A stretch of DNA of 64,000 bases from Escherichia phage EC121. The position numbers and the translations under genes are program-made. The notes under the pieces were generated by a model. The model searched no databases. It had not been told where the DNA came from and saw nothing but the letters and a program-made list of their open reading frames with translations. This document shows, piece by piece, positions 5,975 to 64,000 of the stretch. The stretch's first letter is position 1. The number at the start of each line of letters is the position of its first letter. Location of the stretch: sequence record NC_054909.1; one strand, written 5' to 3'.

Positions 5975-5981
5975 CTTAATT

Positions 5982-6056
5982 TGGTGGCCCTGGGTGGAAT
6001 TGAACCACCATCTGGCGATTATGAGTCGCTTGCTTGAACCTTCCAGCTACAGGGCC
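5982..6056 (-). tRNA. tRNA with CAT anticodon (T4 tRNA-Ile type)
   Basis: GGCCCTG acceptor, anticodon arm AGCGA-CTCATAA-TCGCC, T-arm GGTGG-TTCAATT-CCACC, CCA encoded. Confidence 0.75.
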
Positions 6057-6057
6057 T

Positions 6058-6133
6058 TGGTGCTGATTGACGGAATCGAACCGCCGACATCCTCATTACA
6101 AGTGAGGTGCTCTACCTACTGAGCTAAATCAGC
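6058..6133 (-). tRNA. tRNA-Thr (anticodon TGT)
   Basis: GCTGATTTAGCTCAGTAGGTAGAGC-A-CCTCA-CTTGTAA-TGAGG...TCAATCAGCACCA. Confidence 0.8.
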
Positions 6134-6138
6134 AAAAC

Positions 6139-6228
6139 TGGCGGAGGCGATAGGATTTGAACCTATGAGTCGCCGGAGCGACTGCCGGTTTTCAAGACCG
6201 GTGCATTAAACCACTCTGCCACGCCTCC
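6139..6228 (-). tRNA. tRNA-Ser (anticodon TGA), class II
   Basis: Anticodon arm CCGGT-CTTGAAA-ACCGG, long variable arm, acceptor GGAGGCG/CGCCTCC. Confidence 0.75.
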
Positions 6229-6230
6229 AG

Positions 6231-6304
6231 TCTCCATACAAGGATTTGAACCTACGACATTCTGCTCCCAAAGCAGACGCTCTACCAAACTGAGCTACAC
6301 GGAG
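6231..6304 (-). tRNA. tRNA-Pro (anticodon TGG), CCA not encoded
   Basis: Acceptor CTCCGTG (C1:G72), anticodon arm TCTGC-TTTGGGA-GCAGA; T-stem pairs only 3 bp as I read it; separated from tRNA-Ser by 2 nt. Confidence 0.65.
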
Positions 6305-6314
6305 TAAATTAAAT

Positions 6315-6388
<74 letters not shown>

Positions 6389-6393
6389 AAATT

Positions 6394-6480
6394 TGGTGCG
6401 AGAAGTGGGACTCGAACCCACAAGGAAATAATTCCGCAGCATTTTAAGTGCTGTGCCTTTACCAATTTGACCATTCTCGC
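6394..6480 (-). tRNA. tRNA-Leu (anticodon TAA), class II
   Basis: Acceptor GCGAGAA/TTCTCGC, anticodon arm CAGCA-CTTAAAA-TGCTG, variable-arm hairpin GGAA/TTCC, CCA encoded. Confidence 0.75.
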
Positions 6481-6481
6481 G

Positions 6482-6554
6482 CTGGGAATAAAGGACTCGA
6501 ACCTTTGCATCTAGCAGTCAAAGTGCTATGCCTTACCAACTTGGCTAATTCCCA
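6482..6554 (-). tRNA. tRNA-Gln (anticodon TTG), CCA not encoded
   Basis: Acceptor TGGGAAT/ATTCCCA, anticodon arm TAGCA-CTTTGAC-TGCTA, T-arm AAAGG-TTCGAGT-CCTTT. Confidence 0.75.
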
Positions 6555-6651
6555 ATTATTAACAAAGGCTCTCTAACAAGAACCCTTGATGATAGAGGGT
6601 ATTAATCAGTGCGGTATGAGTTAATAATAACAAATAATTCTTAAAGCATAT

Positions 6652-56489: not shown

Positions 56490-56519
56490 ACTATAACACA
56501 ACACGAGGGACTTGTAAAC
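56490..56519 (-). promoter_or_regulatory. T4-type early promoter (GTTTAC-N18-TATAGT)
   Basis: rc: GTTTACAAGTCCCTCGTGTTGTGTTATAGT. Confidence 0.45.
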
Positions 56520-58576
56520 TACATTTTGAACTTTTTAGACATTCCGTTGATGTTAACCAAAGAAGCTAAGATTTGAGAAACTTCGTTTTCCTCTTCTTTT
56601 GATTCTTCTACAAGGAATTGATTAAATCCAGCCATTGGACGAACTTCACCAGTTTCCATTAGATGGTCGCCATCATATACTGATTCTTCTAATTGTTCAG
56701 AAGGAGGAACGATTGTGCCTTCAATTAGATACTTGTTATAAGCAGTTTCTTTCATCATGTACGTGCTTACTTTATTAATCTTCAACAAAATTCCACGCGG
56801 TAGAATAACTTCAGCTTCTGATGGAAATCCTGATAAATGACCTGGAACGATAACTTTAATTCGCTCAGCTCCTTTTATTACCATACCCACGCTAGTTTCA
56901 GCATCTTCATTAGCATATGCGGAATGACTACCCATATGCATTAAATCTTCGGCATCAACAGAACCTTCTCCTTCACCAGAAAATACTGCGCCGGAATCAT
57001 CTAGAGCCATATAGTTTTTACCATGCTCACCGAAGATATTTGGTTTAAGCGATGTTGATACGAAGTTCTTGAAATAGAACATTTTATTTTCAATATTATG
57101 GCGTAAAGTTTTAAAAGTAACTTCTTGTCCACGATAAAGCGTAGTTCCCGGAGGAAGAACTGATCCTTTGGCGAATGCAGAATCCAACGTCTCGATGTGT
57201 TTAATAGCTCGTTCCATGTATTCTTCACGGGTAGAATCTGGTTTACCCAAGAGGAACGAGTTCATTTCAACATATGAATCTGCACAATAATCTTCAATTA
57301 CATCAGACTCAGCCTGAGTCAGTCCTTTTGGAGTTACTTCGGTGCTTGCGTATTCATATGCCTGAGCAGCAGATTCATTAATCAATTTATAAATGCCATT
57401 CATGACAAATTGAATAATAGCTACCTTTTCGTCTGGTGTGGCTTTAGAACCTTTAACTAAATCATTGATAATTTTCTTAATAACATCAAAGCTATTAGAA
57501 ATATTAATGTCAGCGAGATCGCTCAAAATTTTATCGGTTTTATAATCAAAAAATTCTTTATTCTTTAAATATTCTTGAGAACCTTGATGTGTTATATCGC
57601 TCTGCAGTCTGATAGACGGATCACGTAAACGTGCATGGGCCAATGCAATATGATTTCGGAAGCTTTCTAGTTCATAATCGTTAGATTTAAAACGAGAAGC
57701 ACTTCTCATACCACCGATAGCTCCTTTGCCGAAGTTTGAACCAATCTGAATAACGCCAGAGTTCATTGGTCCTTCTGCTTTATATACAGGAACTTTAGAT
57801 TCAAACTCTTGATATTTCTTGGCAGCGAAGCTATCACCCTGAAGTGAAGCATCGACAGTAGAATATTGAGCTTGCGCTGCTAATCGACGACTAATTTTAG
57901 TTTTCTGAATAACAGCTTGATCCGTGCGCTTATCATTTTCTAAAGCAATAGAAGCAGCAACAGCAACAGCTTTAGGAACAGCATTACCTGTTTTAACATC
58001 TACATAAACATCACCAACCTTTGATTCAACTTTTGTGAATAACTCAGTTGAAATAGGAGGTACGCCTGGAATGTCTTCTAAATTGGCATTTTTACGGTAA
58101 ACCATAATATATGCATACTTTTTATCATAATCCCAGATTTCCTTTAAAAGAACATATCGACCTGCTCCTTTAGTACGTACTAAACGATCAGCAATAACTT
58201 GCATTTGACGAGCTGCGCCATTTGTTTTACTTTTTAGTACGCGGAATAGGCATGCGTCAATTTTATACTGTTTCATTGTTTGAAGAGCAGTATCAAAAAC
58301 CGCATTAATGACACCAATTGGATTTCCACCCAAGTTTTTAAGTTTAACTAATGATAGTTTCTCATTAACACCTATCATTACGATATGCATCATTTTATCG
58401 CCTGGCTTAACGTTTTTATTTGTATCACCACCAGAGGTGTATGTACAAAATCTAAATCCAGGAAGCACACTTTCTTCGCCGGCTTGAATAGCAAAAATTT
58501 GAGGTATTTTATGCTTAGGATTTAAGTTAACAACCGGCGCCGAAGCGCCGTCAAATAATTCTGTAATAAGTTCCAT
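56519..58576 (-). CDS. Alt-family ADP-ribosyltransferase, second paralogue
   Basis: 685 aa; N-terminal 60 aa and C-terminal ART motifs (YRGQ, FVSTSL, EAEVILPRG) shared with the upstream alt; central region diverged; ATG 3 nt after the alt stop. Confidence 0.85.
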   Translation of the reverse strand: MELITELFDGASAPVVNLNPKHKIPQIFAIQAGEESVLPGFRFCTYTSGGDTNKNVKPGDKMMHIVMIGVNEKLSLVKLKNLGGNPIGVINAVFDTALQTMKQYKIDACLFRVLKSKTNGAARQMQVIADRLVRTKGAGRYVLLKEIWDYDKKYAYIMVYRKNANLEDIPGVPPISTELFTKVESKVGDVYVDVKTGNAVPKAVAVAASIALENDKRTDQAVIQKTKISRRLAAQAQYSTVDASLQGDSFAAKKYQEFESKVPVYKAEGPMNSGVIQIGSNFGKGAIGGMRSASRFKSNDYELESFRNHIALAHARLRDPSIRLQSDITHQGSQEYLKNKEFFDYKTDKILSDLADINISNSFDVIKKIINDLVKGSKATPDEKVAIIQFVMNGIYKLINESAAQAYEYASTEVTPKGLTQAESDVIEDYCADSYVEMNSFLLGKPDSTREEYMERAIKHIETLDSAFAKGSVLPPGTTLYRGQEVTFKTLRHNIENKMFYFKNFVSTSLKPNIFGEHGKNYMALDDSGAVFSGEGEGSVDAEDLMHMGSHSAYANEDAETSVGMVIKGAERIKVIVPGHLSGFPSEAEVILPRGILLKINKVSTYMMKETAYNKYLIEGTIVPPSEQLEESVYDGDHLMETGEVRPMAGFNQFLVEESKEEENEVSQILASLVNINGMSKKFKM

Positions 58577-58579
58577 GAT

Positions 58580-60673
58580 TTATCCTTGAACGAACTTGTA
58601 AGGCATGTTTGTAATATCTATGCAAGACGCAATAATTCCAAGAGATGATTCTACTTTTTGTTTAACATTTGATGAAACAAATGATGCAAAGTCAACTCTG
58701 TCTTCTATTTCAATATCACCTGTCATTGCAACTACTTCACCAGTTTCCATTAGACGGTCACCGTCATAAATTACTGATTCGGTGAGTTCTTCCGTAGTCA
58801 TAACTTCAGCTTGAATGAGTTTTGTATTATTAGATGTTGTTCCGTCATTATTAGAAGCATCAGTTATTTTATTAACTTTGACCATCAATCCGCGTGGTAG
58901 AATAACTTCAGCTTCTGTTGCTATTCCGAGACTTCCTGGATATACAACATTAACTTTATGAGCTCCATCAATTGCCCATCCTATTTGAACTTTAACGTAT
59001 TCAGGATTTTCTTTATACGCTCTTATTTCGTTTGGATTAATAGTTATTCCTTCTTCATTTTTATCAACTGTTAATTCATTACGAGCTTCTGGTTCTAAAA
59101 GACCAATACCAGCATGTGTAATTCCAAAACGTCCAAAAATGATAGGAGTTAAAGAAGTAGATACAAAATTTCTGAAATAGAATACTTTATTTTTAACTAG
59201 TGCTTCGTATATAGGAGCAGTCATACTTTGAGCACGATAAACTGTAATGCCTTCTGGTATACGGTCACCATTTTCAAAAGCTGAATCTAAGTTATTTATA
59301 GCAGATTCAATTTCTTTTTCACTCATTACATCATATCGTTCTGGATTGTAGCGTCCTAAAAGAAGATTATTGATGTCAGTATATCCTGAACCGCAATACT
59401 CTCTAATGCCGCGCTTTTGTGATGGAGTATATTTAGAACCATCACGGGCAATAGTAATATCAATCATTGGACCTGCACCAATTCCAGAAAAGCTATAAAT
59501 CATTCGTTTGAGGAATTTAGTTTTTGCTGCGTTCCAGGAATTTTTAGTTATTTCTTCCCAGACTTCATCTGGCTGTCCTTTACGGGTTTTATTATGTTTA
59601 TCAAGCCAATTATCTTTATATTCTTCAAAGAGTTGATTAACAGCTGCTGCGTATTTCTCCAAACATTTTATTGAAGTAGTTGGTTCATTTTTAATCGCAT
59701 TAAGAATTACATCTTTAATCTTTTCAGAAACTTCATTAACCTCACTTTTTGAAAAGAATTTATAGTCATAATGAAGTTCATCTGCAGTTCCTTCAGCAAT
59801 AATTTTTGCTGCCTTAGTTTTAGAAGCTAATGAATTAATTCCAAGCTTCATTTCTTCTGCTTCGGGAATTAAAGGAGCTGTAGCAGGTTTATTGAAATTA
59901 GCTGCGGTAGATTCATACTTCTGGAATAATTCACTTTCAAATCTAGAAGATTCTAATGATTGACTTTGTGCAATTGCTCTACGGGAAATTTTAACTTTAA
60001 CGATTACAGCTTGGTCAGAACGTTTATCGTTTTCTTGCGCAATAGATGCTGCAATTGCCTCATTTTTAGTTACTTGAGCTCCGGTATCTTTATTGATATA
60101 AACATCACCGACCTTCGATTCAACTTTAGTAAAGAGCTCGGTACTAATTTCTGGAACTCCTGGAATGTCTTCTAGTGATACATTTTTACGATGTATAAGA
60201 ATATATGCATACTTTTTATCGTAATCCCAGAGTTCCTTAAGAAGGACGTATCTGCCACCTGAACGACTACGGATAAGTCTATCAGCAATAACTTGAATTT
60301 GTCGAGCTTGGCCAGCAGTTTTAGACTTAAGAATACGAAGCATACAAGCATCAATTTTATATTGACGCATTGTTTGCATTGCAACAGTAAAAACTGAATT
60401 GATATAATTAATTGGGCTTGGACCAAGACCTTTTAATTTAGCAATTGAACCTTTAGCAGTTAATGTAAAAGGAACAATGTGCATCATTTTGTCGCCCATT
60501 TTTAAATCGCGATTAGTATCACCTCCAGATGTATATGTACATAAACGAAAGCCTGGTTGTTCAATTGCATCATCAACATGAACTGAAAAAATTTGTGGTA
60601 TTTTCTTCTTTGGATTTAAGTTTGTAATCGGAAGAGTAGTATCTTCGTCAAATAATTCTGTAATAAGTTCCAT
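58580..60673 (-). CDS. alt: Alt, capsid-packaged ADP-ribosyltransferase
   Basis: MELITELFDEDTTLPITNL... as I recall T4 Alt; motifs YRAQ, FVSTSL, EAEVILPRG; track starts one Met earlier (60676). Confidence 0.9.
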   Translation of the reverse strand: MELITELFDEDTTLPITNLNPKKKIPQIFSVHVDDAIEQPGFRLCTYTSGGDTNRDLKMGDKMMHIVPFTLTAKGSIAKLKGLGPSPINYINSVFTVAMQTMRQYKIDACMLRILKSKTAGQARQIQVIADRLIRSRSGGRYVLLKELWDYDKKYAYILIHRKNVSLEDIPGVPEISTELFTKVESKVGDVYINKDTGAQVTKNEAIAASIAQENDKRSDQAVIVKVKISRRAIAQSQSLESSRFESELFQKYESTAANFNKPATAPLIPEAEEMKLGINSLASKTKAAKIIAEGTADELHYDYKFFSKSEVNEVSEKIKDVILNAIKNEPTTSIKCLEKYAAAVNQLFEEYKDNWLDKHNKTRKGQPDEVWEEITKNSWNAAKTKFLKRMIYSFSGIGAGPMIDITIARDGSKYTPSQKRGIREYCGSGYTDINNLLLGRYNPERYDVMSEKEIESAINNLDSAFENGDRIPEGITVYRAQSMTAPIYEALVKNKVFYFRNFVSTSLTPIIFGRFGITHAGIGLLEPEARNELTVDKNEEGITINPNEIRAYKENPEYVKVQIGWAIDGAHKVNVVYPGSLGIATEAEVILPRGLMVKVNKITDASNNDGTTSNNTKLIQAEVMTTEELTESVIYDGDRLMETGEVVAMTGDIEIEDRVDFASFVSSNVKQKVESSLGIIASCIDITNMPYKFVQG

Positions 60674-60696
60674 CATAGCCTCTCTAGTGTTTATTC

Positions 60697-60704
60697 TATT
60701 TATA
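60697..60704 (-). promoter_or_regulatory. T4 late promoter TATAAATA for alt
   Basis: plus-strand tatttata, 24 nt upstream of the alt ATG. Confidence 0.55.
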
Positions 60705-60725
60705 AAATTAAAGGCCCGAAGGCCT

Positions 60726-60914
60726 TTAGTAATCTAGTGGTAAGAGAGTACGATATATTTCAAACTTTGGTCCTTTTTCATAGGCATCAAATGTTTCTGT
60801 AAATTTATTGTAAGCATATGCATCTACAAATTCGAGAATGACTTGTGATACAGAAGTAGAAACATCTCCACCTTCTTTTTGAGCAATGACAATTGTTTCT
60901 AAGTAAGCTTTCAT
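60726..60914 (-). CDS. Hypothetical protein
   Basis: 62-aa ORF, start overlaps the gene 30 stop. Confidence 0.5.
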   Translation of the reverse strand: MKAYLETIVIAQKEGGDVSTSVSQVILEFVDAYAYNKFTETFDAYEKGPKFEIYRTLLPLDY

Positions 60915-62374
60915 AAACCAGTTACCTCATGAAAATCGCCAAATACATCCTCGAATGTATTAGCTTTAGTTTTATCTTCACGTAAACGAATCGCAATCGG
61001 AAGAAATAATTTAACGTAATCAGTGCGGCCATCAGATTTTAACCAACCGTTGCATTCGCACTCTAGAATTTTTCCAATATAATAATTTTGGTTTTCCATA
61101 ATGCGAGTACGGTCAAGTTCATGCGATTTTACACCAGCTTTATCTTTTAAGCCTGAACCAGCATTTACTTTAATTTTTCCACACTCTGACTCAAGAATAA
61201 ATCCACCCGCTTTAGTAGGGTCTTTACGGTGAGGATAAATTCCTACAATTTTTAAATCAACATCAATTACTTCTTTAAATTTATAAAGATTTTTTGAACG
61301 AGCATTTTCCCATAATCCATCGATATTTTTGAGAATAATACCTTCAAGACCTTGGTCAATATACTTTTTGTAAATTACCTTAGCTTCATCTAGGTTATTT
61401 ACTACCTGGTTTTCAATTAAAATTACTTTATCATATCCCGATGTCATTTGTTCTAGTTTAGAAAAACGTACATCATATTTCAAACGAAATGCTGGAAGAC
61501 CATATATTTCTACTAATGGAACATAATCCCAGACCTGAAACTTCATGCATTGAGCTTCTTTTTCTGAAATGGTTCCCTTTAAAGATTTATTAGCGATTCC
61601 ATTAGAAGTAGTACGTGATTCAGCTACTTCGGCGAATTCTTTAGCTTTACTAATTTCAGGATAAGCATCAAAAAGAAAATCTAGGCCTTCTGGTTCCTTT
61701 TCAACTTGCTCATGGTATACCAATTCGCCATCAATTAACACACCTTCTGGATGAATCTGGCGAGCTTCTGCAGTCATTTTGATTAACTCTTCCTTGAGAA
61801 GATCTAATCCTAGATATTCATTACCAGCTCGTGATAAAAGACGAACATCATCTAATTCATCACCTCTGACTTCAGCAAAGCACCGAGCTCCATCAGCTTT
61901 TAACTGGGCAAAAGCTGGAAATTTGATATTCTTATTAATGCCTTTTTCATCATAAGAACTTGCCAGCATTTGAGGTTGTTCAGGAATTAAACCTGGCCAA
62001 ACTTTGTTTGCAATAGATACTGATGCACCACATTCAAGGTCTCGCATCATCACCCGACGCAAAACTTCAACATCATCTTTTTTACCGTCAGCAATATATC
62101 CAGTTAATTCCTCAATTGCCGCATTTCCGGTCAATTTCCGAGTAGCTAACGTGAATTCAATGAAGTCAAGCATATCGGTAAGAGTTAACATTCCAAAACT
62201 CTGGGTAGAAATACCCGGTTTAGGCCATTTCTTGATATAATACTGCAACCCACGAGAATAAGTCAGACGATATACTCGTTTAAGCAATTCATTATCTTTA
62301 TTCTTTTCAAGAATTGCTTGCTTCTGCTTAGTTGAACCAATAGATGCTATTTCGTTCAGAATTTTAAGAATCAT
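60911..62374 (-). CDS. 30: ATP-dependent DNA ligase
   Basis: 487 aa, MILKILNEIASIGSTKQKQAILEKNKDNE..., adenylation motif KADG (AQLKADGARCF). Confidence 0.97.
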   Translation of the reverse strand: MILKILNEIASIGSTKQKQAILEKNKDNELLKRVYRLTYSRGLQYYIKKWPKPGISTQSFGMLTLTDMLDFIEFTLATRKLTGNAAIEELTGYIADGKKDDVEVLRRVMMRDLECGASVSIANKVWPGLIPEQPQMLASSYDEKGINKNIKFPAFAQLKADGARCFAEVRGDELDDVRLLSRAGNEYLGLDLLKEELIKMTAEARQIHPEGVLIDGELVYHEQVEKEPEGLDFLFDAYPEISKAKEFAEVAESRTTSNGIANKSLKGTISEKEAQCMKFQVWDYVPLVEIYGLPAFRLKYDVRFSKLEQMTSGYDKVILIENQVVNNLDEAKVIYKKYIDQGLEGIILKNIDGLWENARSKNLYKFKEVIDVDLKIVGIYPHRKDPTKAGGFILESECGKIKVNAGSGLKDKAGVKSHELDRTRIMENQNYYIGKILECECNGWLKSDGRTDYVKLFLPIAIRLREDKTKANTFEDVFGDFHEVTGL

Positions 62375-62640
62375 TGTTCATCCTTTAGAGTTTGGTTTAC
62401 AGCTCTATTATAAATCAATTCATCATTAAGCTCAGTCAAAGACTTGTGGTACGTGGTTCTAACTTTATTTCCTTGCATCCAGTGCTTGACGTAAATGAAA
62501 CCTTGCTCTACACATTTTTTAAAAATTCGTTCGTCTTTTTGAGCTCGGAATTCTGGATTGCATCTAAAAAATTGATTTACGTGACCGTAATCACGTGTAG
62601 TATTACCTTCATTTTCATAAATAGTGTGAACAACAAACAT
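62371..62640 (-). CDS. Hypothetical protein (T4 30.1 position)
   Basis: 89-aa ORF, ATG at 62640. Confidence 0.6.
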   Translation of the reverse strand: MFVVHTIYENEGNTTRDYGHVNQFFRCNPEFRAQKDERIFKKCVEQGFIYVKHWMQGNKVRTTYHKSLTELNDELIYNRAVNQTLKDEQ

Positions 62641-63479
62641 TAGAATGCTCCTTGGAAAATATTATCACCACTAGTAGGTCTATTATACAAATACTCTATG
62701 CCACCAGGTTTAATATAGTTCCATGTCTGAAACGGACGTGTCTGATATGGATGATATAGATGATTATAAGGATTAAATCCAGGAGTTCTCCAGGTAGTGT
62801 TCCAAGGAAAAGAATCGTTTTTAACCATCTTCTCGATTACATCTTTTATAGCTTTTTCACAATCAAAACTTTCTTTATTTTCCTTCGGTGAAAAAAGCTT
62901 ATTCTCTACATCATTCCATGTATAAACTCGCTGCGCAGTTTTTGGAATACTGTCACGCTCCCCTCGAGCCATCCAATAAACAGGAACATTTAATATTTCA
63001 CTCGCGTGATCGCAGTGGTGAGCGAGATCGTCAATATAACAAATTACGTTATATTTCTCTTTTGCCTTTTTGAACAACTCTTCTTTTGAAGAATCATGAC
63101 CACACATCAATACTTCTGAGAAGGCACCAGGAAAAAGAGCATTCAAATTAAATTGACGATTTAGCAGAGCGTCAATAGAATCACCCAATGCTGTAACAGC
63201 TACAAAATTATAATCTTCTTTTAATTTGTTAATTACACACAGGGCATCTTTATACGGAGACAAGTAACGAATAAAATCTGAACGATTATACTTTTCGATT
63301 AATTTAACACCAAGTTCTTCATCGCAATTAAAGAGCTTACCAGGAGAAATAAATTTTTCGTCCTGAATCATTTTTAAAATATGTTCCAACGGAAGATTAT
63401 ATTTTTGGGCAAAATAAGGAAGGCCCGATTGCCAGCTTAAACACACCCCGTCAATATCAGTCAAAATAGTAGGCTTCAT
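62640..63479 (-). CDS. HAD-superfamily hydrolase-like protein (T4 30.2 position)
   Basis: 279 aa; N-terminal motif I LTDIDGV (DxDG[TV]) of HAD phosphatases. Confidence 0.65.
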   Translation of the reverse strand: MKPTILTDIDGVCLSWQSGLPYFAQKYNLPLEHILKMIQDEKFISPGKLFNCDEELGVKLIEKYNRSDFIRYLSPYKDALCVINKLKEDYNFVAVTALGDSIDALLNRQFNLNALFPGAFSEVLMCGHDSSKEELFKKAKEKYNVICYIDDLAHHCDHASEILNVPVYWMARGERDSIPKTAQRVYTWNDVENKLFSPKENKESFDCEKAIKDVIEKMVKNDSFPWNTTWRTPGFNPYNHLYHPYQTRPFQTWNYIKPGGIEYLYNRPTSGDNIFQGAF

Positions 63480-63934
63480 AGAGAGTCTCTTAATAGGTTT
63501 AACACATCAATAAATTCAGCTTCGGTTAGTATTGTATCATCTTTTGTTAGACCACTAGCCATGCTATGCTTCAAAACTTTTCCTTTCGAGGCTAGTAATG
63601 CATCACGAAAGCCCTTGTTTTGAATCGCTGCTTCAAAATATGCATTTGTGTACAACTCTTTCCACGCTGGTGAGTATCTTGAAAACGGAACTCCAAGCCA
63701 GAAGAGGGTCCCACGGTCCTGAGCTCTAGCATAAGACCTTCCAGCTTGTTGGGCGGCAAGCCCGGATAACCCAAATACACGACGTTGCTGTTCAACATTT
63801 TTCACCTTACATCCTTGGAGGAATCCTTCGAGACCTCCAAATTGAATGCCATCCATAACGAAAGGCCAATAGGCGAAATTACTTAATGCACATGATGGCC
63901 ACCTAAAATTACTTCTAATCTCTAACTCAGACAT
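63476..63934 (-). CDS. NADAR-like (YbiA/DUF1768-type) protein (T4 30.3 position)
   Basis: ATG at 63934 (track starts 2 codons earlier at TTG); LSNFAYWPFVMDGIQFGGLEGFLQGCK resembles the NADAR signature. Confidence 0.55.
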   Translation of the reverse strand: MSELEIRSNFRWPSCALSNFAYWPFVMDGIQFGGLEGFLQGCKVKNVEQQRRVFGLSGLAAQQAGRSYARAQDRGTLFWLGVPFSRYSPAWKELYTNAYFEAAIQNKGFRDALLASKGKVLKHSMASGLTKDDTILTEAEFIDVLNLLRDSL

Positions 63935-64000
63935 TTTCAATGCTTATAATTTCAACATCAGCCCAATGACCATAGTTTGGTAGACGAAATTCAACTGGCC

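Follow-up and report, generated by a model that had tools for sequence, protein, structure and literature searches.

T-even phages resist bacterial DarTG1, and Johannesman, Carlson and LeRoux mapped this resistance to gene 30.3, renamed adfN (PMC11257639, published as PMC11825919, Nat Commun 2025). Deletion of adfN from T4 or T2 lowers plaquing on DarTG1 by about four logs, AdfN supplied in trans suffices by itself to rescue RB69, and the substitutions E36A and K43A abolish the function of the T4 protein (PMC11257639). RB69 carries an adfN frameshift that removes the last 15 residues and correlates with its DarTG1 sensitivity; DNA modified by DarT1 loses its ADP-ribose when treated with purified AdfN, and DarTG2 is not countered (PMC11257639). 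The published work also reports that T4 AdfN prefers T-even DNA (PMC11257639/PMC11825919) and, together with PMC11125620, that AdfN does not substitute for DarG1 in uninfected cells. Guanine-linked ADP-ribose removal and DarTG1 plaquing have been shown for the T4 and T2 orthologs (PMC11257639, PMC11125620 and PMC12945103); the T4 NADAR hydrolyzes guanine-ADP-ribose and is not listed among the removers of cytosine-ADP-ribose (PMC12945103). The methods of the Toxins 2024 study (PMC11125620) give the T4 construct as "gp30.3; residues 1-208" versus the 152 aa of T4 gp30.3, which may be a typing error or reflect a different homolog.

The window analyzed here is a 64,000-nucleotide stretch of Escherichia phage EC121 (NC_054909.1). 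Its last 3.3 kb are 98% identical to Escherichia phage wV7 and match 686 phage records, mostly Tequatrovirus. The phage is T4-like (genus Tequatrovirus), and its gene 30 region forms the end of the window. Gene names and order were assigned by comparison with the annotated T4 genome, as follows.

56519-58576, minus strand: second alt paralog (T4 comparison; PF03496)
58580-60676, minus strand: alt (T4 comparison; PF03496)
60709-60728, minus strand: terminator-like hairpin, GC-rich with a T-run, after alt.1 and before alt (consensus match only)
60726-60914, minus strand: alt.1 (T4 comparison)
60911-62374, minus strand: gene 30, encoding ATP-dependent DNA ligase; conserved as the downstream neighbor of 30.2 (T4 annotation)
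62371-62640, minus strand: gene 30.1 (DUF3045), between 30.2 and the ligase gene (Pfam PF11243, E 1e-63; T4 annotation)
62640-63479, minus strand: gene 30.2, predicted 279-aa HAD-superfamily phosphatase with a C1 cap, NT5C-like (97% identity to T4 gp30.2)
63476-63934, minus strand: gene 30.3 = adfN, 152-aa stand-alone NADAR domain, predicted guanine-specific ADP-ribosylglycohydrolase acting on DNA (97% identity to T4 gp30.3; PF08010)

The two open reading frames (ORFs) that a preliminary description of this DNA had placed just beyond DNA ligase lie exactly where it put them, with gene 30.1 between them and the ligase gene, and are on the minus strand like all genes in the region. They are not chance ORFs: T4 has both as annotated genes, 30.3 and 30.2, at 97% identity, and the region matches 686 phage records. 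Our overall reading, held with high confidence, is that 30.3 is adfN, countering DarTG1, and that 30.2 encodes an NT5C-like, C1-capped HAD phosphatase that is a neighbor of adfN rather than a demonstrated partner.

The gene junctions overlap: ATGA at 63476-63479 (30.3 stop and 30.2 start), TAATG at 62640 and ATGA at 62371-62374. The hairpin at 60709-60728 was the sole terminator-like site on the coding strand within 60600-64000 and is the probable end of a 30.x-30-alt.1 transcription unit. Together, the overlapping junctions and the hairpin fit a single, tightly packed unit. A promoter scan returned 12 sigma-70-like sites compared with 11.9 in shuffled sequence, and because such sites were no commoner than in shuffled sequence we propose no promoter inside the cluster. 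The gene upstream of 30.3, equivalent to T4 30.4, runs past the end of the window (window part 63927-64000, minus strand), and its stop overlaps the 30.3 start (ATGTCTGA). The region ahead of the 30.3 ATG has no obvious Shine-Dalgarno sequence, which together with the overlapping upstream stop suggests translational coupling of 30.3.

Counted from its ATG, as in the T4 annotation, the 30.3 ORF encodes 152 aa; the mechanically called ORF starts two codons earlier, at TTG 63940. The product matches T4 gp30.3 at 148 of 152 positions (97%) over the same length, with four substitutions relative to T4 (Y22 for Q, V53 for I, L114 for Q and M125 for I). It matches the Pfam family Phage_30_3 (PF08010) over profile positions 1-138 of 138, with E 2.2e-69 and 232 bits (cut-off 36), a family that PMC11125620 describes as the phage branch of the NADAR superfamily. 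Searched on its own, it has no match to Pfam NADAR (PF08719) at E<=1, NCBIfam gave nothing useful for it or for gp30.2, and when either protein was searched by itself against PDB sequences, the result was noise only. PF08719 is nevertheless matched by 19 of 98 gp30.3 family members (best E 1.5e-7), and the profile built from the 98 homologs matches Escherichia coli YbiA (2b3w) with E 0.0078, precisely at the SNF...E..xQ..K region. The homology between gp30.3 and NADAR is therefore transitive. Several metagenomic homologs also carry a YbiA/DUF1768 label from their source.

The AlphaFold (AF2) model of gp30.3 has a pLDDT of 93.7 and a predicted helical core with small beta hairpins at its flanks, as in the YbiA fold. 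A Foldseek search of the PDB placed YbiA first (2b3w, E 3.8e-5, TM 0.69), followed by a Phytophthora NADAR (8bau) and a Geobacter NADAR (8bat). All other PDB matches had E>2, so that the credible ones were the three solved NADAR-superfamily structures only. The residues and segments of gene 30.3 that bear on function are the following.

63806-63886, minus strand: motif LSNFAYWPFVMDGIQFGGLEGFLQGCK of the preliminary description, gp30.3 residues 17-43, with invariant L17-S18-N19-F20 and catalytic E36 and K43
63827-63829, minus strand: E36 codon (sequence position)
63806-63808, minus strand: K43 codon (sequence position)
63566-63568, minus strand: H123, invariant in 98 sequences, directly after the predicted last strand (E120-122)
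63479-63523, minus strand: intact C-terminal helix, residues 138-152 (helix 138-151 in the model)
63592-63798, minus strand: equivalent of 30.3', an out-of-frame ORF inside gene 30.3 (T4 annotates 75 aa)

Across the alignment of 98 homologs, L17-S18-N19-F20, E36, G37, F38, Q40 and H123 are among the invariant positions, and conservation of K43 is at least 90%. The residue Y22 (Q22 in T4) falls within the motif, at a position that varies across the family. According to PMC11125620 and PMC12945103, phage NADARs have a His in place of the last-strand Glu or Asp of other NADAR families. The C-terminal 27 residues of the EC121 protein are the same as in T4, without differences. The overlapping 30.3' frame stops seven codons sooner than in T4 and differs at six further positions, compared with four changes in the 30.3 frame; it looks unconstrained, which argues against 30.3' as a real gene.

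Relative to T4, then, EC121 has an ortholog of AdfN in the same gene order (30.4-30.3-30.2-30.1-30), with catalytic E36 and K43, H123 and the C-terminal helix alike. The NADAR antitoxins of the DarG1/BC4488 type and YbiA (8bat, 8bau, 2b3w) share the YbiA fold and the SNF...E..xQ..K motif with gp30.3, as well as the chemistry on guanine-ADP-ribose (PMC11125620). Unlike these proteins, the phage enzyme is a bare core lacking N-terminal extensions and has His rather than Asp or Glu in the last strand. Its gene has no DarT toxin gene beside it, and the protein gives uninfected cells no protection from DarT1 (PMC11257639, PMC11125620, PMC12945103). The NADAR call, originally made from a short motif, is thus borne out by the Phage_30_3 match, the transitive PF08719 and YbiA matches, the predicted fold, for which YbiA and two NADAR crystal structures were the only matches, and the retention of E36, K43 and H123. 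Taken literally, the lack of a PF08719 match for the single sequence is the outcome that the preliminary description had named as counting against NADAR membership; we consider it outweighed by the transitive and structural evidence.

Because E36, K43 and H123 are kept, the protein is full length and its C-terminal helix (138-151) is present, the EC121 gene is almost certainly a functional adfN allele. Its product, a bare NADAR/YbiA-fold enzyme, would hydrolyze the N-glycosidic bond that joins ADP-ribose to guanine in phage DNA; this activity would remove the adduct that DarT1, the toxin of bacterial DarTG1, leaves on the DNA, so that the phage could replicate. Orthology, fold, conserved catalytic residues and the intact C-terminus come from the present analysis; activity, necessity and sufficiency against DarTG1, the null result with DarTG2 and the preference for T-even DNA come from the literature on T4 AdfN, which is 97% identical. 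The anti-DarTG role that had been proposed from the sequence has accordingly been shown by experiment for T4 AdfN, for DarTG1 (guanine) only and not for DarTG2 (PMC11257639 = PMC11825919). That a phage NADAR can counteract DNA ADP-ribosylation of the DarT type is already established for the T4 ortholog and is not new.

Before those experiments, it had been proposed that the main substrates of NADARs of this kind are not DNA adducts but soluble immune signals derived from ADP-ribose, or by-products of RNA repair (PMC9503650). NADARs are enriched in large myoviruses and are found alongside Macro, SLOG and Nudix genes (PMC9503650), and the failure of AdfN to stand in for DarG1 in uninfected cells (PMC11257639 and PMC11125620) implies that substrate context matters. 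For gp30.3 we nonetheless regard such a main role as very improbable, given that DNA de-ADP-ribosylation and the escape from DarTG1 are backed by direct evidence from both genetics and biochemistry (PMC11257639) and that the window has nothing bearing on soluble signals.

A second alternative arises from the neighboring ADP-ribosyltransferase genes. That the phage has two of them, as had been claimed, holds at the sequence level: both tandem Alt-like ORFs match Pfam ADPrib_exo_Tox (PF03496; E 3e-20 and 2e-37), and their products, of 685 aa (56519-58576) and 698 aa (58580-60676), are both full length. By analogy with T4 Alt, both proteins may be injected. In T4, an old duplication has left one alt and two short remnants, alt.-1 and alt.-2. 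EC121 still has the second copy in full, and both states occur among related loci. The two genes lie about 3 kb from gene 30.3 and seem to belong with it to one early transcription region, and T4-like NADARs are expressed early along with ADP-ribosyltransferases (Iyer et al., PMC9503650); gp30.3 could thus mainly reverse or tune ADP-ribosylation of the Alt/Mod type that the phage itself carries out on host proteins, for example RNA polymerase. However, PMC11125620 and PMC12945103 characterize NADARs on ADP-ribose linked to nucleic-acid bases: guanine for every family, and cytosine only for the NADAR and YbiA-type families. The adfN deletion phenotype is moreover specific to DarTG1 (PMC11257639), and for most of the distant gp30.3 homologs no Alt homolog lies within 6 kb. 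We consider such a main role exceedingly improbable, and the suggestion that gp30.3 regulates Alt-type (arginine, protein) modification found no support in the evidence examined.

Turning to gene 30.2, the literature searched contained no mention of gp30.2 and no biochemical data on it. The 279-aa product is 97% identical to T4 gp30.2, with LTDIDGV at residues 6-12. It has no Pfam or NCBIfam match, including none to the family HMM of NT5C (PF06941), and its PHROG has no assigned function. HAD motifs I-IV are all present (D8-I-D10-G-V12, T96, K132 and D150-D151). In an alignment of 98 homologs, D8, D10, K132, D150 and D151 were invariant and G11 and T96 nearly so, and the motif residues were invariant or at least 90% conserved in both homolog sets (98 and 45 sequences). 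The model is confident over residues 1-220 and has a Rossmannoid core, a helical insert after motif I and two extra helices; the insert, of four to five helices (residues about 14-75), forms a C1-type cap. The HAD call that had been made from motif I therefore extends to motifs I-IV and to a predicted C1-capped HAD fold.

Foldseek returned 114 PDB matches for the gp30.2 model at E<=1e-3; among the matches listed, all were HAD enzymes, and the best target coverage was to the 5'(3')-deoxyribonucleotidases 3bwv (TM 0.71), 4yih (0.68) and 2i7d (0.66). Sequence profiles gave the same neighbors. The best PDB match of the gp30.2 profile was mouse cytosolic deoxyribonucleotidase, improving from E 0.047 to 0.011 with more divergent members, and deoxyribonucleotidases made up 11 of 15 among the matches listed. 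A wider profile that includes distant relatives (A6) matched the deoxyribonucleotidase-like 3bwv end to end with E 1.6e-6, followed by pyrimidine and XMP nucleotidases. An exhaustive profile search identified 1,294 representative relatives (589 at E<=1e-10), typically of about 190-210 aa, that is, the core alone. NT5C was the most frequent Pfam family among 94 scanned sequences (93 relatives and the window core), with 34 matches, and distant phage relatives (gp30.2 profile E 1e-26 to 1e-31) score 29-41 bits against NT5C over the whole model (cut-off 24.8). The NT5C link is thus transitive, through intermediate sequences, and we call gp30.2 NT5C-like rather than a member of NT5C because it has no PF06941 match of its own.

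The 5'(3')-deoxyribonucleotidases (NT5C, PF06941; human cdN and mdN, Staphylococcus epidermidis 3bwv) share with gp30.2 the C1-capped HAD fold, the four motifs and an alignable cap segment (DGV..W/F.SGL, Y..S.F). Identity to the solved enzymes is about 17-21%, and gp30.2 itself scores below every Pfam threshold and differs from them in its two extra helices and a disordered tail of roughly 55 residues. The T5 deoxynucleoside-5'-monophosphatase Dmp (which has no Pfam match) and the 3'-phosphatase domain of T4 PseT are likewise early enzymes encoded by phages and have the DxDG(T/V) nucleophile motif in common with gp30.2. Since only motif I aligns in profile comparisons (hhalign probability 1.7% and 13%, respectively), no specific kinship with either was retained. 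The HAD phosphatase in the NAR 2026 paper on arabinosylated cytosine is RB69 gp51 and not gp30.2. By sequence and model, gp30.2 is a divergent, NT5C-like, C1-capped HAD phosphatase, a family that can now be placed beside the deoxyribonucleotidases.

We propose that gp30.2, with its helical C1 cap, is a HAD phosphomonoesterase that depends on Mg and belongs to a large, phage-rich branch related to the 5'(3')-deoxyribonucleotidases (NT5C); it would most likely dephosphorylate a small nucleotide-type substrate, with its translation probably coupled to that of 30.3 through the ATGA overlap. Capped HADs act on small molecules, as the cap encloses the substrate, and end-processing HADs lack such a cap. 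Because of the C1 cap and this rule, a nucleoside monophosphate is the most likely substrate.

Gene neighborhoods were compared in loci from IMG/VR, 80 collected with the gp30.3 profile and 79 with the gp30.2 profile, whose ORFs were searched with our own HMMs. Of the 79 gp30.2 loci, 65 have a ligase homolog no more than 1.5 kb downstream of the gp30.2 homolog, 68 have one within 6 kb, and 31 have a gp30.3 homolog upstream. In about a quarter of the 80 gp30.3 loci, all of them from T4-like phages and mostly close relatives, a gp30.2 homolog occurs within 6 kb. From these neighborhoods, the evolutionary linkage of gp30.2 is with DNA ligase and not with the NADAR, and 30.2 and 30.3 are therefore neighbors rather than a demonstrated functional pair. 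In three loci (L149, L150 and L151) the order, unlike that of T4, is a NADAR-like ORF, then ligase, then a gp30.2-like HAD, all within 4.5 kb (in L149, 2022-2483, 3898-5307 and 5998-6594). The NADAR-like ORF of these loci contains LSNFAYSPF and matches the gp30.3 profile with E 9e-4, with no Pfam match.

The proximity of the two genes raises the idea of a single module, in which the HAD would dispose of an ADP-ribose-derived product released by the NADAR. The overlapping stop and start codons (63476-63479), the adjacency of 30.2 and 30.3 in all close T4 relatives and the compact arrangement in L149-L151 speak for it. Set against this, gp30.3 is upstream in just 31 of the 79 gp30.2 loci, no gp30.2 homolog turned up within 6 kb in about three quarters of the 80 gp30.3 loci, and AdfN by itself rescues RB69 in trans (PMC11257639). 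We regard a shared module as quite unlikely and decided against a functional NADAR-HAD pairing as the main reading, because co-occurrence is weak beyond close T4 relatives.

The eight most distant gp30.2 loci had no ligase, and in six of them (L153, L154, L155, L156, L158 and L160; for example, 5980-6582 and 6694-7002 in L158) a gene for a MazG-type nucleotide pyrophosphohydrolase follows the HAD gene. The HADs of these six loci are about 30% identical to gp30.2, are true Pfam NT5C matches and have no ligase within 6 kb. This MazG adjacency points to nucleotide metabolism. It also bears on whether gp30.2 could be a DNA-end 3'-phosphatase that prepares nicks for the adjoining ligase, like the HAD domain of polynucleotide kinase. 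Ligase is within 6 kb of the HAD in 0 of 11 loci outside T4-like genomes, MazG adjoins it in six of the eight most distant ones, and T4-like gene order is conserved in general, so that synteny is weak evidence. The C1 cap, moreover, fits small substrates, unlike end-processing HADs, which lack one, and the nearest relatives by sequence and profile are deoxyribonucleotidases. An end-processing role for gp30.2 is thus unlikely, and an NT5C-like nucleotidase remains the preferred reading.

The C-terminal tail of gp30.2 does not belong to the conserved core.

62643-62807, minus strand: C-terminal tail of gp30.2, residues about 225-279, disordered and W/P/N/Y-rich (pLDDT 37-57)

The tail is hypervariable, being absent or unrelated in homologs, whose lengths range from 176 to 347 aa. 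Short motifs recur near the C-terminus in one subset of homologs or another: G(T)GIEYLxxQPT (here PGGIEYLYNRPT), [LV][RK]A[YTF][YF] and VPDYVLLNKVTANDS. These may be partner-binding linear motifs. One could imagine gp30.2 as a ligase-associated accessory or counter-defense enzyme rather than a housekeeping nucleotidase, with swappable tails (the GIEYLxxQPT, LRAYY and VLLNKVTAND types) steering the HAD core to partners, although we find this doubtful. Such an enzyme might destroy a nucleotide-derived host signal or a toxic nucleotide, or clean up repair sites after de-ADP-ribosylation.

The earlier inference of a NADAR with an anti-DarT function was right but not new, since T4 gp30.3 had already been shown to be AdfN both genetically and biochemically; it was a good inference from sequence that experiments on the T4 ortholog have since established. 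What is added here is confirmation, at the sequence level, that EC121 carries an intact and probably functional adfN allele. For gp30.2 there is nothing to suggest a new kind of system. The family is widespread (about 1,300 representative sequences), uncharacterized and phage-borne in every locus examined, and identifying its substrate would close a gap in the map of T4 early genes.
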